Origin: a virus
Taxonomy: Duplodnaviria; Heunggongvirae; Uroviricota; Caudoviricetes
Virus record (IMG/VR): IMGVR_UViG_2645727948_000013
DNA: 26,984 nt
Direction: 5' to 3' (one strand)
Part shown: positions 10,518-26,763 of the stretch, one piece after another
Position numbering within the stretch: position 1 is the stretch's first letter
Layout: every line of letters begins with the position of its first letter
The notes under the pieces: model-generated
The model's database searches: none
Told to the model about the DNA's origin: nothing
The model's input: only the letters and a program-made list of their open reading frames with translations
Made by a program: the position numbers and the translations under genes

Positions 10518-11165
10518 TCACCATTCATAGGGTAAATTAAGCGCTTTTAAACCTTGCTGGAAAGTATTAAGAGATCCGTTTTTTTGTTGTTCCATTTTTT
10601 CGCGTGCAGCTTTCTCATACTGCTCCATCCGTTGGTTATACTCTTGCAATTCCTCCGGGGAGAGGTTTCCCATTGGGGAGTTTGTACCCGGCCCCCTGGC
10701 TCGTTCTTCAAGCGTACCCTGTACGTTTTGATGGCGCATTCCTGGGGCATTTCTTATTGAGTCAATGCCATTTCTTCCAACATCTTCTTTATTAACGGCA
10801 TTGCTCGCCACCAGCACACCCCAGCTAGGGATAGCAAAATCAGGAGCGGTTTCGCATGCCTTTACCATATAATCGAAAGTGCTTCGATTGATCTCGTTTG
10901 CGTCGGGATTTAACAGGCGAGAATATTGATATTTAGCATTTTCGTTGGTTGCGACTTTATACAGTTCTTGCTGCACCATCGCTTCAGAAAGTTTAAGGCG
11001 TTTCATATCTGACAGTAACTTCTTGCGCATGGATTCGTCTTGACTGACAGCAAAGCCGTAAACGTGCCCAAGGTATTTCGTATAATCGGTACAAATCTCC
11101 TTTACGCTTGATGCTGCATTAACAGTCCCAGCCATAAATAATAACGGTAGTAATAGTTTTCTCAT
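10518..11165 (-). CDS. Sim-like periplasmic superinfection-exclusion protein precursor, 215 aa from the RBS-supported start
   Basis: The track ORF 10518..11192 has no SD at its first ATG. The internal ATG at 11165 has a GGTGAGG SD and gives MRKLLLPLLFMAGTVNA (signal peptide). The C-terminal part shares GMRxxxVQGTLEERARGxGT with the Sit-like protein. Confidence 0.6.
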   Translation of the reverse strand: MRKLLLPLLFMAGTVNAASSVKEICTDYTKYLGHVYGFAVSQDESMRKKLLSDMKRLKLSEAMVQQELYKVATNENAKYQYSRLLNPDANEINRSTFDYMVKACETAPDFAIPSWGVLVASNAVNKEDVGRNGIDSIRNAPGMRHQNVQGTLEERARGPGTNSPMGNLSPEELQEYNQRMEQYEKAAREKMEQQKNGSLNTFQQGLKALNLPYEW

Positions 11166-14683: not shown

Positions 14684-14733
14684 TAGATTGCTCTAATCTG
14701 GAGTCACCTGGCGTTTTCAGTTTGAGGTCGGAG

Positions 14734-14979
14734 ATGCAATCTGATTTTTTACAGTTAGCGATCGCTTTTGCAGGATATGTTTGTATTGGCTTCTGTGTAT
14801 ACATGATCAGCCGAAAAATGCTTGTCGATATCGACCGCAAAGAACAAGCAGAGGAGATCTTAGTATGGATTTTCTTTGGCGCGGTCTGGCCATTAGGGAT
14901 CATGTTTGCTGCAACATTTCTTCTGATGTGGATATTCACCCTTCCAGGTGATTTCTATAGAAAAAAAGCCAGACATTGA
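14734..14979 (+). CDS. Small two-helix membrane protein, 81 aa from the SD-supported ATG (track ORF starts at 14653)
   Basis: GAGG SD 6 nt before the ATG at 14734. Two hydrophobic helices (LAIAFAGYVCIGFCVYMI and ILVWIFFGAVWPLGIMFAATFLLMWIF). The longer form would overlap the repL 3' end. Confidence 0.45.
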   Translation: MQSDFLQLAIAFAGYVCIGFCVYMISRKMLVDIDRKEQAEEILVWIFFGAVWPLGIMFAATFLLMWIFTLPGDFYRKKARH

Positions 14980-15003
14980 TACAATCGTTGCGGGTGCTTG
15001 AGG

Positions 15004-15038
15004 CTATCTGCTTCAGGCATTACCCGAAAAGCAGATAG
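15004..15038 (+). other. 10-bp perfect inverted repeat (ctatctgctt / aagcagatag, 15-nt loop)
   Basis: Read directly. It lies between the small membrane gene and the mok/hok locus and could be a terminator-like or 5' mRNA structure. Confidence 0.4.
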
Positions 15039-15102
15039 AAGAAAGCCCCAGATAACATTACGCGTCCTGCAAGACGCTTAACATTAATCTGAGGCCATAT
15101 CT

Positions 15103-15309
15103 ATGCTTAGCATACGTAGATTAGCCTCTTACCGACCAAAAGGTCAAGGAGAAGCAGGCTATGAAGCAGCAAAAAGCGATGTTAATCGCTCTGATCGTCA
15201 TCTGTTTAACCGTCATTGTGACGGCACTGGTAACGAGGAAAGACCTCTGCGAGGTACGAATCCGAACCGGCCAGACGGAGGTCACTGTCTTCACAGCCTA
15301 CGAATCTGA
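15103..15309 (+). CDS. mok: mok-like overlapping reading frame (modulator of hok translation), 68 aa
   Basis: ATG-initiated ORF that starts 58 nt upstream of hok, in a different frame, and ends 7 nt before the hok stop, as in hok/mok/sok loci. Confidence 0.45.
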   Translation: MLSIRRLASYRPKGQGEAGYEAAKSDVNRSDRHLFNRHCDGTGNEERPLRGTNPNRPDGGHCLHSLRI

Positions 15310-15316
15310 AAGGTAA
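15161..15316 (+). CDS. hok: Hok/Gef-family type I toxin, 51 aa
   Basis: Translation MKQQKAMLIALIVICLTVIVTALVTRKDLCEVRIRTGQTEVTVFTAYESER is near-identical in pattern to E. coli HokC/Gef as recalled. AAGGAG SD upstream. Confidence 0.85.
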   Translation: MKQQKAMLIALIVICLTVIVTALVTRKDLCEVRIRTGQTEVTVFTAYESER

Positions 15317-15390
15317 GAGACCTGGCGGGGAGAGATCCTCGCCACTCTTCGTGTGTCAGGTATCCTCAATGCACCCTTTCCTCTCCAAAT

Positions 15391-15415
15391 AAAAAAGCTC
15401 CCGAAGGAGCTTTAA
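15391..15415. terminator. Bidirectional intrinsic terminator between hok (+) and the structural operon (-)
   Basis: Stem aaagctcc / ggagcttt with a cgaa loop. On the minus strand it is followed by TTTTTTATTT. Confidence 0.65.
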
Positions 15416-15432
15416 AATACAAGGGATGACTC

Positions 15433-15942
15433 TTAATCCCACTCAATCCAGTTGTAGACGATACGAAGTGACGGGCGCACAGCGGCAGTCACATCTTCGG
15501 TACTAAAGTCGATTGCATCACTGTAGATTTTGCAGTCCAACATTTCAATTGTTGTAGCAGCTTTTGTCACAGCGTTAACCCCGGAAGATTTGGATTCAGG
15601 GGTAGCAGCCATCGTGATATCAACATAGTCCTTCGCCGCAATGCGATCCTTGATGAACTGAAGAATATCGCCTTCGATAGTCTCCACGCACTGGACCTGG
15701 ATTTCCCCAGAGTTTCGAATTGGTCCGTGCTGGTTGAACTTCACACCATTCGGACCATAGTCCTCCACATCCTCGCGGGTCATTTCAGGAATTTGCGACG
15801 TGCGAACCAGTACGCTGATATCTTCATGGCCTGCAAAAGTGAGCTGGAATTCAGAAGATACCAGTCGTTCGCCTTTGGCCGCGTTGGCAGTATAGCGGCC
15901 CTTAATAAATTTACGGTTTCCCTTAGTGTTATTGTGCCCCAT
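15433..15942 (-). CDS. Tail tube protein (T4 gp19-like), 169 aa
   Basis: Size and C-terminal ...VYNWIEWD resemble myovirus tube proteins. AAAAGGA RBS. Confidence 0.6.
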   Translation of the reverse strand: MGHNNTKGNRKFIKGRYTANAAKGERLVSSEFQLTFAGHEDISVLVRTSQIPEMTREDVEDYGPNGVKFNQHGPIRNSGEIQVQCVETIEGDILQFIKDRIAAKDYVDITMAATPESKSSGVNAVTKAATTIEMLDCKIYSDAIDFSTEDVTAAVRPSLRIVYNWIEWD

Positions 15943-15953
15943 ATAAAATCCTT

Positions 15954-16535
15954 TTACTGGAACGCCCGAACAATATCGGAGCTGTTATATATCGAAGAAC
16001 CGGTCAACTGGAGGTTGACGGTGTTTTTCAGGAAATGCCCATTGCTGTCCCTGGGCGCATCGAGATCGAAACTTATGTCCTGGATAGCGACATCAATGAT
16101 GTTGATCCGGCGACCAATGTTTAGCGTCACGCGCTCCGGGATTCGACCACCAATACTGGCATCTTTAAGTTCCGGGCTAATCATCGCTGACAATGCGGCG
16201 ATAGCTCCTGAAACCTCCGTGAATGGGTCAAACAAAGCGATGAAAGTTACTGGCAGCGTGAAAGTCGGCGGTGTTCCCCCTTCCCAAACCATTAAGCTGT
16301 TCCAACGGGCAACCGACGTTGTTTCAGTACCAACCTGCGCAAAACCACTGAAGGCACCAGCAACAGATCCCATGGACATACCGGTAAACGGCGCTTCCCA
16401 ATTCTGGGCCATGTTCATTGCCGCCCCCTGGCTGATATATCCGGTAACCTGGTACTGAGAGTTCGTTAAAGTAACTTTCAGAAATGGCGATACACCGTCA
16501 GCCTGGCTGTAAACCCCATAAGGAATAGGTGCCAT
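15954..16535 (-). CDS. Tail structural protein, 193 aa
   Basis: ATG at 16535. Its AGGAGGA SD lies 28 nt upstream, separated from the ATG by a hairpin. Confidence 0.6.
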   Translation of the reverse strand: MAPIPYGVYSQADGVSPFLKVTLTNSQYQVTGYISQGAAMNMAQNWEAPFTGMSMGSVAGAFSGFAQVGTETTSVARWNSLMVWEGGTPPTFTLPVTFIALFDPFTEVSGAIAALSAMISPELKDASIGGRIPERVTLNIGRRINIIDVAIQDISFDLDAPRDSNGHFLKNTVNLQLTGSSIYNSSDIVRAFQ

Positions 16536-16545
16536 TCAAGTTAAA

Positions 16546-16563
16546 GGCCGGAGTTCTCCGGCC
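16546..16563 (-). promoter_or_regulatory. Hairpin between the SD and start codon of the 193-aa gene (split RBS)
   Basis: ggccggag / ctccggcc inverted repeat sits between AGGAGGA (16564..16570) and the ATG (16535). Folding would bring the SD to normal spacing. Confidence 0.4.
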
Positions 16564-16570
16564 TCCTCCT

Positions 16571-17386
16571 TTAGCCAAGGCGCTTACGGCGCAGTTTCAT
16601 TGACTTTTTGCGGGCAAGTTTTGCCGCGCCGGTCTGGGCTTTTCGACGCGCTTTTTTCAGCGCCGATTTTTGAGCCGCAGTCAGACGTTTTTTACGCAGG
16701 CGTTTACGGATGAGTTTGATCTCACCGTTACGAACAACCTTCTTAAATGCTTCAGTCAGCATTTCATCAGAAGTGCCAGCAACAACAAACGCCGCTTCCA
16801 GTTCGTCGCGGTCGTCGCTATCTAAACCAGCGATAGAGGCACCAACATCAGCAGCTGCGTCGTCGTCTTCATCGTCAGCCAGTGCTTCGATCAGGTCATC
16901 ATCTACACCGCATGCTGCGAGGAAGTCAGCAACATTTGCCCATGCTTCGTTATAGGCATCGTCCTGTTCTTCTGTAACTTCGGAGTCGTCGTCATCAGAG
17001 ATACCAGCGATAGCCTGAACGAAACCATCAAGGGAGTCGAAAGTCAGATCACCGCTATCAGCCCAGGCGAAAACGGCGTCGGCCGCATCACTCAACGCAT
17101 TTTGCATAGCACTTCGATTTGCAGCTTCCAGAATCATCTGGTGCGCCTGTTCGACGGTCCATTCTTTACCGTCTTTCCCTTCCAGGATTTGCTCAGGAGC
17201 CTGGGCAGATGGAACGTTATCGTTAGTCTGTGCCGCCGGTTCCGGATTATTATTAATAACCGGATCTGTTGGCGGTTCGGCGCTTGCTCGGGCAGACTCC
17301 ATCAGCTGCACAGGATCAGAGTTCAAAGCGAAACGAGACAGTCCATTCCCCAAAAATGCCCCGGATTGAAAAAAGTTTTTGCTCAT
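16571..17386 (-). CDS. Acidic, probably disordered virion/morphogenetic protein with a poly-basic C-terminal tail, 271 aa
   Basis: AAGGGAA RBS. Asp/Glu-rich runs (DDDDSEVTEEQDD, ADDEDDDAAADV) and a C-terminus RKRLRKKRLTAAQKSALKKARRKAQTGAAKLARKKSMKLRRKRLG. Confidence 0.65.
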   Translation of the reverse strand: MSKNFFQSGAFLGNGLSRFALNSDPVQLMESARASAEPPTDPVINNNPEPAAQTNDNVPSAQAPEQILEGKDGKEWTVEQAHQMILEAANRSAMQNALSDAADAVFAWADSGDLTFDSLDGFVQAIAGISDDDDSEVTEEQDDAYNEAWANVADFLAACGVDDDLIEALADDEDDDAAADVGASIAGLDSDDRDELEAAFVVAGTSDEMLTEAFKKVVRNGEIKLIRKRLRKKRLTAAQKSALKKARRKAQTGAAKLARKKSMKLRRKRLG

Positions 17387-17395
17387 TGTATTCCC

Positions 17396-18985
17396 TTACT
17401 TAATAAGCAGCGGTACGCCCTGGATACGACGGGCTACGCCAGTCGGGCAGCAGGCCCAGACTACTTCCCATTTATCGAATTCCGCCTGCGTAACTTTCAG
17501 CACATACGGTTCTGTACCGTCAGCATCAGGATCACGAGGAGCCACCAGAGCGCCGGAGGCGACAAAGCGATCTAAAAGTTTGGTCATCCCTTTAGTCAGG
17601 CCAGCCGCAGTAATACCGTCCGGGCTATGCTTCATCTGTCGGGCTAACTGGACAAAGAAACGGCTGATTGCATTCATCAGGGATGGGACGTGCTGGAAGT
17701 GCAGATAGTTATCCTGCGTGCAGCAAGTTAAAGCATCGTCGATGATCATCTGGCCAGAGGTGCCAACAGATACTTTATTGAGACGGCCCTTGACCATTGC
17801 TTCTTCGTCCGGGGTATCTTCCGGATACAGCGGTTGAATTGACGCACGAGCAATGACGGCACGTTCTTCACCAGCCGGTGAGTAATGCCAACCGCCGACA
17901 TCAGAGTTTTTCTTGACGCCACGAGCTTTCGCCGCATACGCCACGCCAGACAGACCAAAGACCACACGGGATTGGGTCCATTTGTCTTTGCAGGAGAACG
18001 GGTAGTGATAGACAGAACAGCTTACATAATCGGTACCAAGTAAACCGGTATCCTCAACAGCTGGTAGTGCTTCTGCGTACGTTAATGTCGGTTTGACATC
18101 AAAGAAGCCATCAATCAGGCGATCTGCACAGATTTTACCTAATGCGGTGATAGCCGCATTGTCATAGCAGCCCAGGCCAAGAACAGCGGTGTACATGTAC
18201 GGCGCATTGTTCAGAACTTTCACCGCACGCAGGTACGCAGCTGTTGATATTTTCGACTGATCACCGTTGGTACCACCAGTGAACGCCAACGATTTTTTAT
18301 TTGTTACTTTCGCCGTCGAAATCAGCTCTTCATTAACAACCGCGCGCAGATATTTAGAACGGGCTTCCAGAGCCGTAGGCAGATAACACAAGCGGCCCAT
18401 GTCATCTTTCGCTTCTTCCGCCAAAGACACAGTGTGTGTCTCCAGGGTCGTTACCACGCCGAGCGAAGTCGTCTGGGTCAGTTTTAAGAGGAAGCGTTCA
18501 TTACCCGCGCTGTCCGCTGTTGCCGTTTCGATGGTTAACTCACGGGTAGGTGAAATACACGGATCACCATCATCAACGTAGATAGCAAAGGCTTCGCCGC
18601 TATCAAGTTCAATTTCAGAACCGTATGGCAACGCACTGTAAGCCGGTTCGCCTGATTCATCGAACATAATAATCGGGAACTTCGCATCATCCGGAACAGC
18701 ACGGACAACATAACCAGACGTTTGCTGAATAGCTTCGTACACATGGCGAATTGGTTCGAACTGTGAGCCGGAAGACGGCTTCAGCGGTTCGCCGAGAACA
18801 TCTTCGTAATTGGACTCAGTAACCGCAAGAACAGTAAACGGCTTGCCACGCGCAAATACGCCAATACCAGCCCACAAGCTGCTATTTAATGCAACACCGG
18901 TAGATAACGTCGCATCGGCATTGATCGGGCTAACCGCGACGCCGGATGCATTACCTAATGACTGTTGAATTGAATATTGAGACAT
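17396..18985 (-). CDS. Putative tail sheath protein (P1 gp22-like), 529 aa
   Basis: ATG with AGGGAAAG RBS. Size and position upstream of the tube gene are consistent with a contractile sheath. Confidence 0.6.
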   Translation of the reverse strand: MSQYSIQQSLGNASGVAVSPINADATLSTGVALNSSLWAGIGVFARGKPFTVLAVTESNYEDVLGEPLKPSSGSQFEPIRHVYEAIQQTSGYVVRAVPDDAKFPIIMFDESGEPAYSALPYGSEIELDSGEAFAIYVDDGDPCISPTRELTIETATADSAGNERFLLKLTQTTSLGVVTTLETHTVSLAEEAKDDMGRLCYLPTALEARSKYLRAVVNEELISTAKVTNKKSLAFTGGTNGDQSKISTAAYLRAVKVLNNAPYMYTAVLGLGCYDNAAITALGKICADRLIDGFFDVKPTLTYAEALPAVEDTGLLGTDYVSCSVYHYPFSCKDKWTQSRVVFGLSGVAYAAKARGVKKNSDVGGWHYSPAGEERAVIARASIQPLYPEDTPDEEAMVKGRLNKVSVGTSGQMIIDDALTCCTQDNYLHFQHVPSLMNAISRFFVQLARQMKHSPDGITAAGLTKGMTKLLDRFVASGALVAPRDPDADGTEPYVLKVTQAEFDKWEVVWACCPTGVARRIQGVPLLIK

Positions 18986-19000
18986 AACTTTCCCTGTTAT

Positions 19001-19019
19001 GCGCCCCGCACGGGGGCGC
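19001..19019 (-). other. GC-rich intercistronic hairpin (gcgcccc / ggggcgc)
   Basis: Between the gp23-like stop and the sheath RBS. No U-tract, so possibly a processing or attenuation signal. Confidence 0.3.
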
Positions 19020-19045
19020 TATGTTAAACGGAGAACTTCCCCTGA

Positions 19046-20752
19046 TTACTCAGAGTCACCGGCATCAATCGTGTCGCCGCTAATGAAGTTAAGCCCGCCT
19101 TTTTTGGCCATTGTCAGCGTTACACGAGTGAAGTAATCAGCGCCGTTGCGTGGGTGCATATCGTTGATAGCCGAACCCCACAGCGTGGTACGGTTGACCA
19201 GCGCCGGAGTGGTCGGATGCTGGAACGGGATGGCCGGGACAGCATCACCAGTCACGAAGCCTGCTTTACCCGGATTTTCATCACGGACGTAGCACAGCAC
19301 ATCCATCGAGCTGAACTGAATGTTCTCTGTCGTTAAGTTCTTACAAATACCAGCAGGTACTTCGTACACTTTCACGTTACCGAACAGGGTACCGATGTAG
19401 TGAACATACGGAGTCTGGATATAGTCTTCGGCTGGCTGGAAGAAATCCTTCGGCAACTGTTTGAAGAAAGATGCTGCATCAGCACCAGCAAACATCCCCA
19501 TCGCACCAGAAGATCTAACGCGCTCAATAATGTCGCGATATACAGTCTGGAATTTGCCACGAATGATGGTTGCCCATACATCAAAGGACTGGTTAACCGG
19601 CAGAGCGATGTCAAAGGTGTCGGTCGCAAGAGTACGCCAGATCATGATGCGAAGACGCAGCATATCCTGTTCATGAGACAGGTATTCCTTCAGGGTGCGG
19701 AACTGTAGGGAACCCAGGTCCAGACCAAATTCACGCTGTGCTTCATACGCCGCCTGTACCGTGTGCTCAGCCGCGATAACGAACTGGCTTGGGAACAGGG
19801 TGTATTTCTTCATTTCGTGGTTGATCAGCGGGATCAGCTCAGGAGCGGCTTCAATATTGATTTCCGTCTCAATTGCGATCTCAGTGCCTTTATCCGGCGC
19901 TTTGGAGAACGACAGGGCAATCTGACCAATGTTGTAGTTCAGAGAGCAGGTAACAGTGATTTGCTCACCAGCAGCATTAGTAAACGAGTGAAGTAGGCTG
20001 CCGGAACCGTTATCAACAACAGACTTAATACGGTTAACGTAGATATTAGTGCGACCTTTTCGGATTGGTACATTCTGGCCTTCGAAGTCTTCCATCTTGA
20101 AGGTTGCGGTTTTGCTGGTGCCATCGGAGCTTGCCACCAGCACATAGCGGCGGCGTAACTGGCTGTACACACCGACGGATTGCATGTCCAGAACATCACC
20201 AGCAGCATAAGAACCAAAAGAGGAACCTGCCACGTTAAAGACTTCATAGATGTCGGACTGGTCACGCGTAACCGGAATGAAGGTACACGCATCAGCGGTA
20301 GCTGCCCCCAACTGAACAGGCAGGATCATCGCGAGGAATAAAGGCAGACGCATAACACCGTCAGAAACGCTCATCATCTCTGCTGCGACGGATTCCAGCA
20401 TCGCTTTATTAGTGGCATCCATGCTATTGCGGGTGGACTCAATCAGGCAGTTTTCCAGCGTCTGGTGGCAGGAGGCCAGAATTTCCGGACGCGGCATAGA
20501 TTTATGTGCTGCGGCGTAGTCAGCCAGTGCACTTGCCCACGCTGTAGCGATTTGAGCGGTGGCATTATCAGAGATACCCGCAAAAACCGGGTCTTTACGT
20601 GCAGCTTCAAGGATAGATGCGGCACGCGCGGCATCATCTTTAATGAATTGGTTATCAGTACCGAACTGCGCAGTGCTTGCCCAGCCAAGCACAGCTTTAG
20701 AGCGTTTTGCGATATCTGCAATACGATTCTGGTATTCGCGTAAGTTACTCAA
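19046..20752 (-). CDS. Major virion structural protein (P1 gp23-like, putative major head protein), 568 aa from a TTG start
   Basis: The ORF track start at 20773 is TTG with no SD. The TTG at 20752 is preceded by AAGGAAGAG. The first in-frame ATG is about 90 codons downstream, so the start is uncertain. Confidence 0.65.
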   Translation of the reverse strand: MSNLREYQNRIADIAKRSKAVLGWASTAQFGTDNQFIKDDAARAASILEAARKDPVFAGISDNATAQIATAWASALADYAAAHKSMPRPEILASCHQTLENCLIESTRNSMDATNKAMLESVAAEMMSVSDGVMRLPLFLAMILPVQLGAATADACTFIPVTRDQSDIYEVFNVAGSSFGSYAAGDVLDMQSVGVYSQLRRRYVLVASSDGTSKTATFKMEDFEGQNVPIRKGRTNIYVNRIKSVVDNGSGSLLHSFTNAAGEQITVTCSLNYNIGQIALSFSKAPDKGTEIAIETEINIEAAPELIPLINHEMKKYTLFPSQFVIAAEHTVQAAYEAQREFGLDLGSLQFRTLKEYLSHEQDMLRLRIMIWRTLATDTFDIALPVNQSFDVWATIIRGKFQTVYRDIIERVRSSGAMGMFAGADAASFFKQLPKDFFQPAEDYIQTPYVHYIGTLFGNVKVYEVPAGICKNLTTENIQFSSMDVLCYVRDENPGKAGFVTGDAVPAIPFQHPTTPALVNRTTLWGSAINDMHPRNGADYFTRVTLTMAKKGGLNFISGDTIDAGDSE

Positions 20753-20813
20753 TTTACTCTTCCTTAAACACAAGGCACTTGTGTGAATCCCTTTTCGGAA
20801 GAGATTTTATTGA

Positions 20814-20832
20814 AAGTCACTTGTTGACTTTC
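20814..20832 (-). promoter_or_regulatory. Palindrome aaagtca-cttgt-tgacttt upstream of the gp23-like gene (candidate late-promoter operator)
   Basis: 7-bp perfect inverted repeat read directly, 60 to 80 bp upstream of the putative start. Confidence 0.3.
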
Positions 20833-20886
20833 TCGTGACAAGCAATTTTTTTATTTTTTTCGGGAGTAGGGGCGGAAGGTAAAATC

Positions 20887-20975
20887 CAAGGTGAAATCGT
20901 GGCGATTTCACCTTGAAATTTTAGATGGATTTACTTTAAAAACAGTAGGTTAATAGTGAAATTTGAATGGCGAAA
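20887..20975 (-). promoter_or_regulatory. parS: parS partition site (ParB box A / box B motifs flanking an IHF-type site)
   Basis: Minus strand reads TCGCCATTCAAATTTCACTATTAAC ... ATTTCAAGGTGAAATCGCCACGATTTCACCTTGG, matching the P1 parS arms (ATTTCAC heptamers, TCGCCA hexamers) as recalled. It lies immediately downstream of parB. Confidence 0.85.
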
Positions 20976-20977
20976 GT

Positions 20978-21979
20978 TTAAGGCTTCGGCTTTTTATCGA
21001 GGCTCTTTCTAAGGATATGCCCAATCATCCTGTCGAGTTCTTCCTGTAGCTCTTTTGAAAGTCGATTAAACTCATAAGAAAATGCACGGCCTTTCACGCG
21101 CTTCCTTGCAAAGCGATCCTTGTCCTCAAATTTCCATAATTCAGTAACTACGGACTTATCTTTAGAACCTTTATCCGTGAGTAGTGAGGCTTCCTTTGTT
21201 ATCAAGCGCAGGATTTTATTTTTAACTTCATCTTCGGCCATTTCTTCAATGGATAAGATGTCGTTTATTTCCGGGGATATGTTTTGAATAAGCTGATCAA
21301 ACTCTAAATTCTTGTTCCCCATTTCGTCGCCAACAGCACAAAGCGTTTTGTAGTCCGAAAAGGTTAATTCCGACTGCACAGGGAAAAGGGCGACTAATTC
21401 TTCCGGAGCACTCGCTGCCTGGAGAGCACGCGTGACCTTCGCCTGAGACAGCCCTTCTTTGGCTGCAATATCCTTCTGACTCATCCCATCATTTTTCATT
21501 CGCATCAAACGCAGACCTATTTCTCGAATGCTGTGCTGCAATGCTGTCTGAACGTCTTTCGCTAAATTTTGCGCTTCCTGAACGCTGATCTCCTGGTCCG
21601 TGACTAAAACCCGCAACCCTACGTTCTCTAAGATGGCAGAAGCTCGACGCCGGGAACCATCCAAAATTTCAATTTTCCCTGTAGCCCGTCTAACACCTAT
21701 TGCAGGGTAAAATTGCTGATGCTTAATAGTGCTTCGGATACTTTTTAATGATTTTGGCGTAAGAGATGCCTGGTCACGCCCGTTGTTATGCTGATCAACA
21801 AAGGTATCGCTTTCTACCTGGTTCGGAGGTATTACCTCTTCAATAAATGTGGCCTGGCGACCAGTTGATAACTTGAATACCTGCTCGACTCGATCGCCAG
21901 AGGCTGAAGAACTATCAAATCCGCTTAATATTGAAGGATTAAGGGTTCGCCCAATTGTTGGTCTGTTTTTCTTTGACAT
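20978..21979 (-). CDS. parB: Partition protein ParB, 333 aa
   Basis: Translation MSKKNRPTIGRTLNPSILSGF... ends ...DKKPKP. Size and sequence match P1 ParB as recalled. parS follows directly. Confidence 0.9.
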   Translation of the reverse strand: MSKKNRPTIGRTLNPSILSGFDSSSASGDRVEQVFKLSTGRQATFIEEVIPPNQVESDTFVDQHNNGRDQASLTPKSLKSIRSTIKHQQFYPAIGVRRATGKIEILDGSRRRASAILENVGLRVLVTDQEISVQEAQNLAKDVQTALQHSIREIGLRLMRMKNDGMSQKDIAAKEGLSQAKVTRALQAASAPEELVALFPVQSELTFSDYKTLCAVGDEMGNKNLEFDQLIQNISPEINDILSIEEMAEDEVKNKILRLITKEASLLTDKGSKDKSVVTELWKFEDKDRFARKRVKGRAFSYEFNRLSKELQEELDRMIGHILRKSLDKKPKP

Positions 21980-21995
21980 GGGGGTTTCTTACTCC

Positions 21996-23192
21996 TCAGT
22001 TAGATCTGATAAATTCAATACGGTCAAAAACTGCTTTAGCAAAATCTTCCGCGGCAATTCGCGCGTTCTTCAATGCATCAGCACTACCAACATACGTTGC
22101 CGGGTTAGCTGAAATAACAGTGTCAAAAGACTCGCCGCAGCGTTCAAAACCGTCAAGGCGAGGGAGGACGACATCAAGCATATCCCCACCGAACACTTCT
22201 TTAGCCAGGCTATGGCAATACTTATGGTCTGCCTTGTTACTCAACTTGGACATAAAACCAATGTTAGTCGCAAGCTGGCACTCGCAGCCTTCATCCGAAA
22301 TGAGTTTCACCAACTCAGGAAGGCGGGCAACGTATTTAAGCGATGAGTGGAAATCAACCGTTGCAGGCGGCAGAGGTGTAAACAGTATATTGGCCGAGGC
22401 CAAAGCATTTTTCAGGAAGGCGTCAAGGTGAGGACCACTATCAACGAGGATAAAGTCATAATCGCTCTTCAGCTTATCAATCACATTTTCTTTCAGGACA
22501 GCATGGATGTTCTGACCCGGTAGATGCTCATTGCACAGCTCTCTCCAATCGGATGCAATAAAGGCATCGTCAATCGACGCAGGCATAACGTCAACCCCAG
22601 GTACAACAGAAGGAACAATAAACTCCTCTAACAGCTCTTCACGGCTTACATTCTGCAACATAGCCTGTGCAGATGTTGCGTTTACGATACCAATAGAGTG
22701 TTTATGGCTTAAAAACATCGTTGCTGAAGATTGCGGATCAAGGTCAATAACCAGAATCCTTAAATCTTCCATCAGAAGATGAGGGTGAGCACGCATTGCA
22801 TGCGCCAGAGAAACCGTCGATACAGTTTTTGACACACCGCCTTTAAGATTGGAGATGAAAATCACATACGCTTCGCTGTAGCGATCCCGGTATTTTGGCA
22901 CTCCGCGATGTTCATATATGTCAATGATGTTCTGAATTGACATCGCATATTTCATTGAAGAGCCAGCAGGGCGTTTATCGAAAACATAACCCTTTTCTTC
23001 CATTTCACTCACGGCATAGTCAACGTTCGCTCGAGTCAGTAGAGGCAATTTTGCCAGTGCCGCTTTCGCATAGACCTGGTAAAACTCGTTCGCGTGTAGC
23101 TCATCCTTTTGCAACTGTACTTGTTCAGTCAGAACATTGAGCATTCTGTTTGCTCTTTGAGCAACCTTGTGAAGCTGGCTGGAATCACTCAT
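21996..23192 (-). CDS. parA: Partition ATPase ParA (type Ia, with N-terminal DNA-binding extension), 398 aa
   Basis: Deviant Walker A (KGGVSKT), 398 aa, AAGGATGG RBS. Matches P1 ParA as recalled. Confidence 0.9.
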   Translation of the reverse strand: MSDSSQLHKVAQRANRMLNVLTEQVQLQKDELHANEFYQVYAKAALAKLPLLTRANVDYAVSEMEEKGYVFDKRPAGSSMKYAMSIQNIIDIYEHRGVPKYRDRYSEAYVIFISNLKGGVSKTVSTVSLAHAMRAHPHLLMEDLRILVIDLDPQSSATMFLSHKHSIGIVNATSAQAMLQNVSREELLEEFIVPSVVPGVDVMPASIDDAFIASDWRELCNEHLPGQNIHAVLKENVIDKLKSDYDFILVDSGPHLDAFLKNALASANILFTPLPPATVDFHSSLKYVARLPELVKLISDEGCECQLATNIGFMSKLSNKADHKYCHSLAKEVFGGDMLDVVLPRLDGFERCGESFDTVISANPATYVGSADALKNARIAAEDFAKAVFDRIEFIRSN

Positions 23193-23238
23193 CGAAAGCC
23201 ATCCTTTATGCTGTATTTTTGAATTTAATTAAAAATGC

Positions 23239-23261
23239 TGCATAAAATAATAATGTATGCA
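23239..23261. promoter_or_regulatory. par operon operator-like inverted repeat (TGCATA-N11-TATGCA)
   Basis: AT-rich inverted repeat directly upstream of parA, where ParA autoregulation is expected. Confidence 0.4.
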
Positions 23262-23332
23262 CAGATGCTTGTACATAGCATTCTCTGCATGTTTGGTTCA
23301 TTTTGCACGATTGAGAGTTACAAGGAGGGCAC

Positions 23333-23357
23333 AAAAAAGCCCCGTTCAGGGGCATCA
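23333..23357 (-). terminator. Intrinsic terminator after the T5orf172-domain gene
   Basis: Minus strand: gcccc-tgaac-ggggc followed by TTTTTTGTG, 4 nt after the stop at 23361. Confidence 0.65.
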
Positions 23358-23360
23358 GTG

Positions 23361-24170
23361 TTATTTGCTAAGAGCAGCGAATAATCGTTCGAAATCGATA
23401 GTATCTATAGCACGCGTAAGCGCCGGAAGTTCAGCCTCAAAGTACCCGTGTCGATCGTAAAAGAAGGGACCGAAGAGCGAGGCATGTTGGATTCTACTTC
23501 GCCCCAGCCCGGACACACAGTTAAGCCCATTACCGGCTAAAAGGCTAAAAAACTTCTCTGGATTATCGTGGTAAAGCTGGGAATCAATGGTGGCAGTTAA
23601 CTCTTCCATAGGGAAGCACACCCGCCTTGTCTCCCAGGAATATTTAGTCCGAAGCATAAACATTGCTTTCAGCAATTCACATTGAGCGCGGATCGCGTCC
23701 GGTTCATAGCCAGATATGGAGACATAAGCCACGTCCCTCATTCCTGCGTCATCTTTGAAAGTCACGATAGAAGTAACATCCAGCTCTTTTTCGAAAGAGC
23801 GGGCAGCATCTACTGGACGCTGAAGTAAATCATTCGACTTAATGCGCTCGAGAATCCCTCCCCACATATCATTTAGATATTCGATATGAGCCAAAACCTT
23901 ATCAAGACACTCTCGTGTAAACCATTCAGTATGCCCGCCACCAGCGCTTTTCTCCCACGGCGCATTCCAGGGGAAAAAGGTTGCGTGTAAAGCCCGCTCA
24001 AGATTAACTATTGCCAAACGCGTACCACGATAGACCCGTGAAAGCGCAAAATCGGGACTCACTTGTAGCCCTTTAAACCGTGCCAATGGACCACATGAAA
24101 TGCCGATTTTAAAAGTATCTCCATTCTCCGGCACCAGAACGTAGAGGTAGTGTTGTTTCTCTTCTTGCAT
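23361..24170 (-). CDS. T5orf172 (GIY-YIG-like) domain protein with an uncharacterised C-terminal domain, 269 aa
   Basis: N-terminus HYLYVLVPENGDTFKIGIS...R...LERALHATF...GGHTEWF fits the T5orf172/MUG113 pattern (YxYxL..KIG..R..E..LH..F..G..EWF). Weak SD. Has its own terminator. Confidence 0.7.
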   Translation of the reverse strand: MQEEKQHYLYVLVPENGDTFKIGISCGPLARFKGLQVSPDFALSRVYRGTRLAIVNLERALHATFFPWNAPWEKSAGGGHTEWFTRECLDKVLAHIEYLNDMWGGILERIKSNDLLQRPVDAARSFEKELDVTSIVTFKDDAGMRDVAYVSISGYEPDAIRAQCELLKAMFMLRTKYSWETRRVCFPMEELTATIDSQLYHDNPEKFFSLLAGNGLNCVSGLGRSRIQHASLFGPFFYDRHGYFEAELPALTRAIDTIDFERLFAALSK

Positions 24171-24204
24171 ATCAATACCACTGCTTGATGAGAACCGCGC
24201 AAAT

Positions 24205-24460
24205 GTTGACTATGCGCGAAAGTTAATGTGAATAGTTGACTATGCGCGATGTGACTACAGTCAAAAGTTGACTGTAGTCGATTTAACTCCACCAAAGATC
24301 GACTATGTAAGATATTGTCGGGAGAAACGTTGACTATACGCGATGAAATGACCCTAAAAGCCATCTCAATAGCGACTTGCAGAATATTGACGCCAGCAAA
24401 AATCCACCAGCGTCAACGAATGTCGCCTATAGTCAACTTCTCGCTATCGCATATAGTCAA
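24205..24460. repeat. incA-like iteron array (about 9 RepA-binding repeats, both orientations)
   Basis: Repeated GTTGACTAT(G/A)CGCGA and complement (C)GC(G/A)TATAGTCAAC units at about 24205, 24235, 24254/24267 (palindromic pair), 24300, 24329, 24409, 24424 and 24445. Confidence 0.8.
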
Positions 24461-24462
24461 TA

Positions 24463-25347
24463 TTATGGATTGCGCTTATGGATCTGGAAGCCGATTTTCC
24501 TGCCGTTTTTTATTTCTGAAAATTTAAGATATTCAATAGCTTCCAAATCTTTCATGGCTTTTCTGATAACGCTATTTTGCACGCTAACGGATGATTTGAG
24601 ATTAAGCCTTGCTCTAAGGCGCTCAATGCTGACAGGTGCCGGGTTGGCGGGTAGAGCCTCAAAGAATGTATACAGTACCTTGGCCGTCTCTTTGCGCCCG
24701 AGCTTATCCAGCATCTTCAGCTTCAGGATTCGCTTATAGTCAACATAGTAAAGTTCAGATAGCTGTTTCTGCGGCTGGATCTCGATAACATCAAGCTCGG
24801 TATTCAGGCTGCTATATGCCAACAAGTTGACGTTAATGTTATTGAGATGACCTTTTGCCGCCGGGAAGCGGAATTTGACAACTGTCTGCTGAATGCGTGT
24901 CAGAGAGTCATCAATACTTTTACGGAACGCCTTTGAAAGGCGCTTACGTGGATAGCCGCATCGATCGGCAAACTCGGAGAATGGCAGGGTGATTATGCCG
25001 TCATCATCAGGTGCGTAGTCAAACAACGCGGAGGTTATGCCCACCCACACCTTAAAATCAGTATCCATATCCAGGCGTGGGCCATGAATTTCAATTCCCT
25101 CATAGCCTTCCTGCTCAACAATTTTAAGGCTTGATAGTTCTTCGGTTGCGTTCGTTGTGTTTGTAGTAACTGACGATCCGCGACGTAGTGCCACATTGGT
25201 AGATTTTAAGGTTGGCACAAACACACCTAAGCGCAACAAAGCGATAGGTTGTATAGTGCTGTTGTTATTGGGCTTCAGGCTGTGGATTTCTCCTGTATTT
25301 CCTGCAACTTCTTCAACGCTAAGGAAGCCTTTACTTTCTTCCGGCAT
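24463..25347 (-). CDS. repA: Plasmid replication initiator RepA (iteron-binding, P1 RepA family), 294 aa
   Basis: Flanked by a 5-iteron origin upstream and a 9-iteron array downstream. GGAGAAA RBS. Segments (LRLGVFVP, GPRLDMDTDFK.W.G) resemble P1 RepA as recalled, but overall the protein looks divergent. Confidence 0.8.
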   Translation of the reverse strand: MPEESKGFLSVEEVAGNTGEIHSLKPNNNSTIQPIALLRLGVFVPTLKSTNVALRRGSSVTTNTTNATEELSSLKIVEQEGYEGIEIHGPRLDMDTDFKVWVGITSALFDYAPDDDGIITLPFSEFADRCGYPRKRLSKAFRKSIDDSLTRIQQTVVKFRFPAAKGHLNNINVNLLAYSSLNTELDVIEIQPQKQLSELYYVDYKRILKLKMLDKLGRKETAKVLYTFFEALPANPAPVSIERLRARLNLKSSVSVQNSVIRKAMKDLEAIEYLKFSEIKNGRKIGFQIHKRNP

Positions 25348-25424
25348 CGTGGTTTCTCCATGTGTGGCGCGGCCTGGCGTTAATTTAGATGACTGTTATC
25401 AACAGCTGTGAATATTCAGGCTCT

Positions 25425-25640
25425 AAAATCGCGTACAGTCAACGTTTCTGTCGCGTATAGTCAACAATAAATCGCGTGCAGTCAACATAAAATCGCACAC
25501 AGTCAACATAAAATCGCGTATAGTCAATGTTGATCCCGTTTCAGGCCATGAACGGCGCGGCTTACAGCGATCCGGGATCTTCTTTGGATCTTCCTAGGTT
25601 CTCTTTGGGATCTGTTTATTGGATCTATGCTGTGGATAAG
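25425..25640. other. Plasmid origin oriR: five phased iterons, GATC cluster and DnaA box
   Basis: Iterons gcg(t/c)a(c/t)agtcaa(c/t) at 25430, 25452, 25474, 25495 and 25516 (21 to 22 bp phasing). Six GATC sites between 25532 and 25625. DnaA box TGTGGATAA at 25631..25639. Confidence 0.8.
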
Positions 25641-25681
25641 TTGAATAAACCGGCCAACATAGCCGGTTGGAAGGAAGGGTA

Positions 25682-26074
25682 TTATTCTACGCTTTCGATA
25701 AGAAGACCATGTTCATAACATTTAAGCTCATCGCCTTCGTACAGGAATTGGTATCCAATACCACCATTTTCATGGACATTAGGGAATAACTCATAACTCA
25801 CTGAAGAGCAAATCACACCAATGCAGCGATCAACGCCTTCTCGTTCTTCAGTGCTGAAAAAATCCTCTTCGGTAAGAACATGAGTACATTGCTCATCAGC
25901 ATAGGTCGGAAATACATGCTCAATGCAATCCGGGTGTTTTAAACCAAGCTGAGCGGCAAGCTCGAAAGCATGACGGTATTGTTCAGATCCTGGCTTGCCA
26001 ACAGTGATGTGCTCAATTTTGTAGATTGAAGTCGCTTTGTTGATAGTTTGCTTTACTGTTACTTTATCAGACAT
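25682..26074 (-). CDS. Hypothetical protein (in the position of P1 UpfA), 130 aa
   Basis: ATG with AAAGGGA RBS, first gene of the cluster downstream of oriR. Cys/His-rich (CIEH, CTH, C..GVIC, CYEH). Confidence 0.6.
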   Translation of the reverse strand: MSDKVTVKQTINKATSIYKIEHITVGKPGSEQYRHAFELAAQLGLKHPDCIEHVFPTYADEQCTHVLTEEDFFSTEEREGVDRCIGVICSSVSYELFPNVHENGGIGYQFLYEGDELKCYEHGLLIESVE

Positions 26075-26085
26075 AAAAATCCCTT

Positions 26086-26337
26086 TTAGTTACCGCTGAT
26101 AGCGCGGTTGTAATCATTAACGTTGCGATTCTTCCTGTTAATCCCCATCAGCATCGTTTCTGTATCGAGGATATACGCTGGCAGATCATCGAAATATTCA
26201 CTGCTAAACTCTGGCATTCTGCACATAAATGCACTTTTGGGGGCAGGGTGGTTAACCTTTGTCGGCGTCGGCGTTAAATTCGCTGATCGACTCCCGGAGC
26301 AACCGCTGAGTGTCAGCAGGAATGCGCTGGCGAACAT
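26086..26337 (-). CDS. Lipoprotein precursor (lipobox LTLSGC), 83 aa from Met28 of the track ORF 26086..26418
   Basis: MFASAFLLTLSGCSGS signal and lipobox followed by a Pro/Thr-rich segment. Start is uncertain (Met1, Met8 or Met28). Overlaps the upstream membrane-protein gene in another frame. Confidence 0.5.
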   Translation of the reverse strand: MFASAFLLTLSGCSGSRSANLTPTPTKVNHPAPKSAFMCRMPEFSSEYFDDLPAYILDTETMLMGINRKNRNVNDYNRAISGN

Positions 26338-26674
26338 TACCCGCCGCAACCAGTTGTTTCTGAACTTCAGCTTTTCGTTCCATTTGCCTGTCAGCATATT
26401 TGGCTTGTTCTGATTCATTTTTCACTTCCTGGCTGTGAAAATGTTGCTCTGCTTTGTTCATCGTCTCAATGGTCTGGTTAAGATCCATTATTGACTTATC
26501 ACGTTCCTTAACAGCCTGATCAAGACTGCCAATTTTCTCGATGGCTTGCTTTAGCTGATGACGTTCCCATGCAAACCCAGCACCAACAAGTGCGCAAATC
26601 AGAACAAGAACACCAGTAGCAGCAAGTTTCTCCTTCAAAGACAAAGCTGTTTTTAACGTAGAAAAGAATGACAT
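26252..26674 (-). CDS. Membrane-anchored coiled-coil periplasmic protein, 140 aa from the SD-supported ATG
   Basis: AGGAGGA SD 5 nt before the ATG at 26674. One N-terminal TM helix (LAATGVLVLICALVGAGFAW) followed by a charged coiled-coil-like region. Confidence 0.55.
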   Translation of the reverse strand: MSFFSTLKTALSLKEKLAATGVLVLICALVGAGFAWERHQLKQAIEKIGSLDQAVKERDKSIMDLNQTIETMNKAEQHFHSQEVKNESEQAKYADRQMERKAEVQKQLVAAGNVRQRIPADTQRLLRESISEFNADADKG

Positions 26675-26763
26675 GTCTTCCTCCTGAAGAAAAATTATCA
26701 ATGAAGTCCTTTGTTACTGTGCCGCTTTGTTTAATTCATCAAGAACAGAATCAGGAACCAAAG

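Follow-up and report, generated by a model that had tools for sequence, protein, structure and literature searches.

Organisation of the locus

The locus is part of a 26,984-nucleotide viral DNA (the window, by which the whole stretch analysed is meant) that is colinear with phage P1 (NC_005856, ~37095-64031) at 96-99% identity, with a few blocks swapped. One of these non-P1 blocks, within the P1-colinear stretch, is the replicon described here, which is located between a P1-type parA and upfA, the same place as the replicon of P1. Coordinates refer to the plus strand of the window, and the replicon is oriented along the minus strand. The following features were identified:

20891-20973, minus strand: parS centromere, P1 type, outside the cassette (aligns to P1 58912-58994)
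20978-21979, minus strand: parB, P1 type (333/333 residues as in P1; Pfam PF08775 ParB)
21996-23192, minus strand: parA, P1 type (397/398 residues as in P1, 99.7%; Pfam HTH_54 and AAA_31)
23190-23275, minus strand: par operator and promoter, P1 type (P1 61211-61296, 3 mismatches)
23295-23302: left cassette junction, where the P1 alignment stops (P1 ~61315-61323)
23361-24170, minus strand: ORF of 269 aa, T5orf172/GIY-YIG family (Pfam PF10544, residues 8-85, 26.8 bits)
24202-24346: five inverted downstream (incA-like) iterons of 21 bp each, at 24202, 24232, 24264, 24295 and 24326 (~31-bp spacing)
24400-24464: three downstream iterons in origin orientation, at 24400, 24420 and 24444 (scores 9.9, 18.0 and 23.6)
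24463-25347, minus strand: repA, p0111-type initiator of 294 aa (ORF with a GGAG ribosome-binding site)
24727-24747, origin orientation: intragenic iteron GATTCGCTTATAGTCAACATA, inside the repA coding sequence (weight-matrix score 19.9)
25396-25404 and 25407-25415: two inverted DnaA-box-like 9-mers, TTATCAACA and ATATTCACA, between the origin iterons and repA
25426-25531: five direct origin iterons (incC-like), starting at 25426, 25448, 25469, 25490 and 25511 (weight matrix, repeat families)
25532-25625: GATC (Dam-site) cluster, with sites at 25532, 25569, 25576, 25587, 25609 and 25622
25639-25631, minus strand: perfect DnaA box TTATCCACA, the sole perfect one in the 27-kb window
25648-25640, minus strand: degenerate DnaA box TTATTCAAC, adjoining the perfect box
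~25640-25650: right cassette junction, at the DnaA boxes (three-way alignment with P1 and L005, a D6-related contig introduced below)

The partition module is of the P1 species, as the initial annotation had proposed from the appearance of the par proteins and of parS, and not of the P7 species. Indeed, (i) ParB, identical to its P1 counterpart, shares 42.1% identity with P7 ParB, (ii) ParA shares 57.8% identity with P7 ParA, (iii) every ParB box A and box B motif of parS is identical to that of P1, the five substitutions relative to P1 all falling in the spacer, two within the annotated IHF site, and (iv) a promoter scan recovered the par promoter as TGTACA-17-TATTAT on the minus strand (23275-23247). 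In the P1 record, parS is annotated as the incB incompatibility determinant.

The 269-aa ORF, which sits between the downstream iteron array and parA, has no counterpart in P1. The protein matches PHROG 2876 over its full length and, weakly, PHROG 681 ('endonuclease'), and no defence-system match was obtained for it with PADLOC. In the phage collection, the 12 records that have this ORF are those with the repA of the cassette. A terminator-like hairpin (23353-23339) adjoins it.

The initiator RepA shares 42.7% identity with RepA of P1 (42.3% by tblastn; 42% by BLASTP, E 9e-71, over 272 residues); the RepA proteins of P1 and P7 are identical to each other. Pfam searches gave 27.3 bits for Rep3_C (cut-off 21.1) and 22.0 bits for Rep3_N, just below the cut-off of 22.4. 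With Rep3_C above its cut-off and homology to P1 RepA, the protein belongs to the Rep_3 initiators (PF01051 / PF21205), and it also matches PHROG 775. No NCBIfam model matches RepA, the GIY-YIG-like ORF or UpfA, and a structure search with the RepA sequence detected no solved structure (best E-value 0.39).

Iterons were mapped with a weight matrix made from the five origin iterons, the window being scanned at a score of at least 16. Twelve matches were found in the 27-kb window, all within 24202-25531, and 20 shuffles of the window yielded one match at this threshold in total; the iteron repeats are therefore not due to chance. The origin iterons are spaced by 22, 21, 21 and 21 bp and score from 23.6 to 29.9. 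Their consensus is AAATCGCGTATAGTCAACATA on the plus strand, including a (T/C)AGTCAAC core, and AAyGTTGACTrTrCGCGATTT in the repA sense, with the core repeat TGTTGACTATACGCGAT.

A second iteron array follows the initiator gene (24202-24464) and is composed of eight sites, five inverted and three direct, of which six are clear and two degenerate. The inverted sites score, from 24202 to 24326, 22.0, 20.8, 21.0, 10.4 and 23.1, and the site at 24295, decayed here, is a good iteron in L005. Among the direct sites, the one at 24400 is degenerate and the one at 24444 overlaps the repA stop codon, as iteron 9 of P1 abuts the end of repA; RCS47, pO111_2 and L005 have kept all three. Nine bidirectional iterons had been announced in the initial annotation for this side of repA: the array is indeed bidirectional, but eight sites were counted. 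A half-site at ~24383-24394 might pass for a ninth and may be what had been counted. By analogy with P1, the array may act as a copy-control locus (incA-like), in which the number of working sites is uncertain since one is decayed and one degenerate.

A further iteron is found inside repA itself. It is kept in L005 (5601-5621), and no intragenic iteron was found in the repA genes of P1, SSU5 and a Klebsiella phage-plasmid. Inside the repA of a 55%-identical relative from Proteus, that relative's own iteron recurs in perfect form; homology of the two intragenic sites (covariation) was considered and rejected, the Proteus copy occupying another codon position and being oppositely oriented.

The GATC cluster beside the origin iterons is the host-factor half of the origin. 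Its six GATC sites in 94 bp make it the densest 100-bp stretch of the window, for which the mean is 0.45 per 100 bp. The two DnaA-like 9-mers at 25396-25415 have one mismatch each to TTATNCACA, and L005 has a perfect DnaA box at the place matching them. With five phased iterons, six GATC sites, one perfect DnaA box and three near ones, the origin follows the P1/RepFIB plan. A standard promoter scan gave no repA promoter within the origin iterons; the best candidate of a relaxed scan, TTGACT (25485-25480) and GACTAT (25462-25457) with a 17-bp spacer, is weak (8/12 positions). The hexamer TTGACT is present in each origin iteron, and the repA promoter is probably located within these iterons. The five phased iterons, the GATC cluster, the DnaA box and repA, reported earlier in a layout described as exactly P1-like, were thus all located by coordinates; the plan is that of P1, but the match is not exact, with an extra iteron inside repA and a 269-aa ORF absent from P1.

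Boundaries and relationships of the cassette

Both flanks of the replicon are closely related to P1. Window positions 15391-23294, which take in parS, parB, parA and the par promoter, align by blastn with P1 53412-61315 at 98.7% identity, and positions 25554-26763 align with P1 62816-64031 at 95.6% identity; between these flanks, the cassette interior gave zero blastn matches to P1. The left junction is ~20 bp upstream of the -35 hexamer of the par promoter. For the right junction, the blastn edge at 25554, inside the origin, was considered and rejected, the GATC half being L005-like (87% identity, versus 72% with P1). In the three-way alignment, the sequence is P1-type outward from ~25650 and L005-type inward. 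Judging from this alignment, the GATC half of the origin came in with the cassette, and its resemblance to P1 reflects conservation across the whole family.

The replaced cassette therefore spans ~23295-25645 (~2.35 kb, versus 1.6 kb in P1) and contains the GIY-YIG-like ORF, the downstream iterons, repA and the origin. The span 24171-25640, singled out in the initial annotation, fits the replicon part of this cassette well. The divergence from P1 suspected there for RepA and the iterons was also found: when aligned with P1 and P7, neither proved identical to P1, the P1 iteron GATGTGTGCTGGAGGGAAA matching TGTTGACTATACGCGAT at ~9/19 positions by inspection of the sequences. The locus is accordingly a mosaic, as had been suggested, in which a P1 partition module and P1 flanks (95.6-98.7% identity) enclose a replicon with a different initiator and different iterons.

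The relationships of RepA were examined among 381 homologues. The nearest ones outside the p0111 cluster are the RepA of L005 (85% identity) and a protein on large Proteus contigs (55%), and the rest are RepFIB- or SSU5-type initiators (44-50%). P1 RepA is the most distant of 13 RepA compared and is nearer to Klebsiella RepFIB-type proteins (51-53%). These relationships are taken to rule out divergence in situ of the P1 replicon itself, with no import of a cassette, a reading that we consider extremely improbable. It would account for the common architecture and parA-upfA location and for the alignment of the GATC/DnaA half with P1 at 72%. However, similarity to P1 changes abruptly at both ends, from highly similar flanks to an interior without blastn match; RepA is closer to many non-P1 proteins (46-85%) than to P1 RepA (42%); its 85% relative lies in a D6-related backbone without P1 flanks; the GATC half is nearer L005 than P1; and an extra gene arrived with the cassette. 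From the sequence relationships, then, the cassette derives from a distinct branch of the RepFIB/P1 RepA family, and its ~2.35 kb took the place of 1.6 kb of P1 backbone.

Replicon type, distribution and compatibility with P1

With the anatomy, homologies, junctions and distribution observed, the element very probably maintains a P1-like phage-plasmid at low copy number and is a replicon of the already published p0111 type, an iteron-controlled theta replicon built on the P1 plan with a different initiator/iteron specificity. It is not the P1/IncY replicon proper, which has a P1-type RepA and a 19-bp iteron, and megablast of the replicon matched no P1 or P7 reference record. The same replicon, with no substantive difference, is present in the p0111-type phage-plasmids RCS47 (FO818745), SJ46 (KU760857), JL22 (ON018986), pO111_2 (NC_013370) and pS51_2 (NZ_CP015997). 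Indeed, RepA is 100% identical to that of RCS47, 99.7-100% across RCS47, SJ46 and JL22, and 99.0% in Ro157c2YLVW. At the DNA level, the replicon shares 99.3% identity with RCS47 and 97.4-97.9% with phi456, SJ46, JL22 and others, and the cassette is 100% identical to pS51_2. Identity to pO111_2 (NC_013370.1, E. coli O111:H- 11128), the reference of the replicon type named p0111 in PlasmidFinder, is 97.8% over all 1,470 bp, which places the element in that type; NC_013370 is presumably the same plasmid as AP010962. The latter is the p0111 reference accession given in the literature (PMC11165635). The p0111 phage-plasmids also have the same GIY-YIG-like neighbour, annotated as two shorter ORFs in pO111_2.

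The replicon is widespread on plasmids. It is carried by 404 plasmids in PLSDB and by 415 of 5,426 complete E. coli genomes, in which 460 of the 468 places are on plasmids, and the host plasmids are roughly 90-100 kb in size. A scan of species-representative genomes returned one Escherichia locus only. P1-like phage-plasmids have been described as carrying either an IncY or a p0111 replication gene; in JL22, repA' (p0111) and the unknown gp57 replace repA (IncY) (PMC9603915). That SJ46 RepA is only 42% identical to P1 RepA was published in 2017 (PMC5241659). Of 226 P1-like elements from Salmonella, 132 are p0111, and ~17 replicon-type switches were inferred on the phage-plasmid tree (PMC11165635). 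The mosaic reading is thus correct, but the mosaic was already described as p0111 type versus IncY, and with IncY/p0111 typing of P1-like phage-plasmids established, its value as a discovery is small. In the literature searched, no description was found of p0111-type iterons or of an iteron inside repA; the iteron map is a small descriptive addition to a known replicon type. The database labels of the initiator are inconsistent ('RepFIB', 'RepB family', 'replication helicase' and, in MOB-suite, 'IncHI1B') and can mislead automated typing.

That the replicon might be an inactive relic, the element being maintained from another origin, is suggested by the decay of one downstream iteron and by the fact that the visible window is 27 kb of the element. 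This is very unlikely: repA is an uninterrupted reading frame, conserved at 99-100% among independent isolates, the pS51_2 region examined has no second plasmid initiator among its annotated genes, the replicon is found on plasmids of the size given above in hundreds of genomes, and JL22, with the same replicon, lysogenises MG1655 (PMC9603915). A working maintenance replicon of p0111 type is the reading retained.

Compatibility with P1 depends on more than the replicon. Because the iterons and RepA differ, incA/incC-type interference with P1 should not be expected, judging from the sequences. The partition site and the immunity region are another matter, the c4 immunity region being P1-type and kept: with a P1-type parS (incB), an identical ParB and a P1-type c4, the element should still interfere with P1. 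The different incompatibility put forward in the initial annotation can therefore hold only for the replicon determinants (incA/incC). As a proxy for the incompatibility tests suggested in the initial annotation, replicon types were counted in the 5,426 complete E. coli genomes: the p0111 replicon is present in 415, the P1 replicon in 361 and either one in 774, so that both replicons are found in 2 genomes (415 + 361 - 774), versus 27.6 expected under independence, a ~14-fold rarity to be read with the strains not being independent samples. No single record among these genomes carries both replicon types.

A broader proposal would be that the cassette confers full compatibility with P1 by creating a new incompatibility group of its own, whose members could live in one cell with IncY phage-plasmids. 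The iterons and RepA, wholly unlike those of P1, the statement that the two types 'can theoretically be compatible' (PMC11165635) and the two complete E. coli genomes that hold both types would agree with it. We nevertheless consider it improbable in view of the identical ParB and P1-type parS (incB in the P1 record), the P1-like c4 region and the shortage of genomes with both types, a shortage seen among strains that are not independent samples. The two types can share a cell but do so far less often than expected, in keeping with continued exclusion by way of the par and immunity functions that they have in common. A replicon swap alone should not free the element from P1, since parS/ParB and immunity remain shared.

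Proposed functioning and comparison with known replicons

The functioning proposed for this p0111-type replicon is drawn, for every binding and regulatory step, from analogy with P1 and other Rep_3 plasmids. In brief, RepA monomers would bind the five phased origin iterons and DnaA the flanking boxes, and the GATC-rich stretch beside the iterons would then be opened, its Dam methylation state gating re-initiation. With the repA promoter within the origin iterons, RepA would repress its own synthesis. The eight downstream iterons would titrate RepA and pair with the origin iterons ('handcuffing'), keeping the copy number low; the intragenic iteron could also take part in titration or handcuffing. 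Finally, the adjoining P1 ParA/ParB/parS system would segregate the copies.

More tentatively, the intragenic iteron could be an extra RepA-binding site that helps to control the copy number, or could impede transcription through repA, and the replicon could move as a cassette between phage-plasmid backbones, the conserved DnaA-box/GATC half being one recombination end and the GIY-YIG-like gene perhaps helping; this combined proposal is a possibility that we consider rather doubtful.

Compared with the oriR-repA-incA region of P1 and P7 (IncY), the element shares (i) DnaA boxes and GATC sites (five listed for P1/P7) at corresponding places, five 21-bp-phased iterons and repA, (ii) direct iterons and ~31-bp-spaced inverted iterons after repA, the first one overlapping the stop codon, and (iii) the neighbouring genes, both initiators being of the Rep_3 family. 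It differs in the iteron itself, in the tandem DnaA-box pair, of which one box is degenerate here, unlike in P1, and in the downstream array, which comprises 3 direct and 6 inverted iterons (9 in total) in P1 versus 8 here.

The closest known system outside the p0111 cluster is L005 (DABKFZ010000018, a 91-kb, D6-related E. coli contig), whose RepA has the 85% identity given above. The two replicons agree in the iteron core, in having five 21-bp origin iterons and an iteron inside repA, in the two orientations of the downstream iterons and, at 87% identity, in the GATC/DnaA half. L005 differs in that D6-like morphogenesis genes surround the replicon, par genes and a GIY-YIG-like ORF are absent next to it, and the four inverted downstream iterons are all intact.

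The RepFIB-/SSU5-type replicons of Enterobacterales, with RepA at 44-50% identity, have the DnaA-box and GATC-heptamer motif, 21-bp-phased iterons and further iterons after repA. In contrast, their iterons are unrelated (e.g. AACCACTGTAGAGAGTA in SSU5 and GTATGCTGTCAGCGGTA in a Klebsiella phage-plasmid), and their initiators are longer (~330-360 aa) and lack an intragenic iteron. In P1, SSU5, the Proteus relative and this element, the DnaA-box and GATC-heptamer half is conserved whereas the iterons are wholly different, and the origin can therefore be seen as a constant host-factor half joined to a variable specificity half.

In summary, P1-like elements combine their replication and partition modules independently of each other: P1 and P7 have rep in common and differ in par, whereas the element studied here has par in common with P1 and a different rep.

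Partition module

In the window, the parS site of the partition module beside the p0111 cassette (the ~2.35-kb block replacing the P1 replicon) has ParB boxes that are all the same as in P1, with five substitutions relative to P1 parS in the spacer (20938-20960), two of which fall within the annotated IHF-binding site. According to a passage of the SJ46 paper, which cites the RCS47 paper, ParA and ParB of RCS47, a P1-like phage with a p0111-type replicon, are identical to those of P7 and distant from those of P1 (PMC5241659). The deposited RCS47 ParA and ParB (808-3022 of its replicon locus, L002) are 100% identical to those of the window (20978-23192). In both elements, ParA shares 99.7% identity with P1 and 58% with P7, and ParB shares 100% with P1 and 42% with P7. 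Judging from these comparisons, the statement in that passage appears to be reversed.

Other blocks differing from P1

A hok/sok type I toxin-antitoxin module (14992-15316) stands in place of P1 rlfA/rlfB, within a block lacking P1 similarity (14698-15390), and comprises:

14992-15166, sok (Rfam sok, 114.9 bits)
15161-15316, Hok/Gef ORF (Pfam, 78.7 bits)

The P1 sim (superimmunity) region is also exchanged for other sequence (9984-11025), which has no blastn match to P1 and contains one ORF of 158 aa and another of 224 aa, the latter giving no more than a borderline match in Pfam. Examined by eye, the translations of both suggest secretion-signal-like N-termini.

The p0111 cassette and its initiator

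In P1-like elements, the p0111 cassette is accompanied by one further ORF:

23361-24170, minus strand, T5orf172/GIY-YIG-family ORF, 269 aa

Within the phage collection, this ORF and this repA occur in the same 12 records; it is missing beside the related replicon of L005, a D6-related E. coli contig. It may be a nuclease that aids the spread of the cassette. The p0111-type initiator is named inconsistently between databases (pS51_2, NZ_CP015997, and phage records), as 'RepFIB replication protein A', 'RepB family plasmid replication initiator' or 'replication helicase', and MOB-suite types pS51_2 (NZ_CP015997) as 'IncHI1B'.

Origin half and intragenic iteron

The origin half with the DnaA box and GATC heptamers (25532-25648) is conserved between the P1, p0111-type, SSU5 and Proteus replicons, which have unrelated iterons. 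This half occurs twice, ~350-375 bp apart, in SSU5 (495-538 and 870-913 of locus L012) and in the Proteus plasmid (4268-4299 and 4618-4649 of locus L007).

The repA coding sequence itself contains a full iteron copy, GATTCGCTTATAGTCAACATA (24727-24747), which is oriented like the origin iterons and encodes Y-V-D-Y-K-R-I. This copy is kept in the variant with 85% RepA identity (L005, 5601-5621) and is absent from repA of P1, SSU5 and a Klebsiella phage-plasmid. In repA of the Proteus relative (55% RepA identity), the iteron of that replicon recurs as a perfect 19-nt copy (L007, 5424-5442), but this one is inverted and lies at a different position within the gene.
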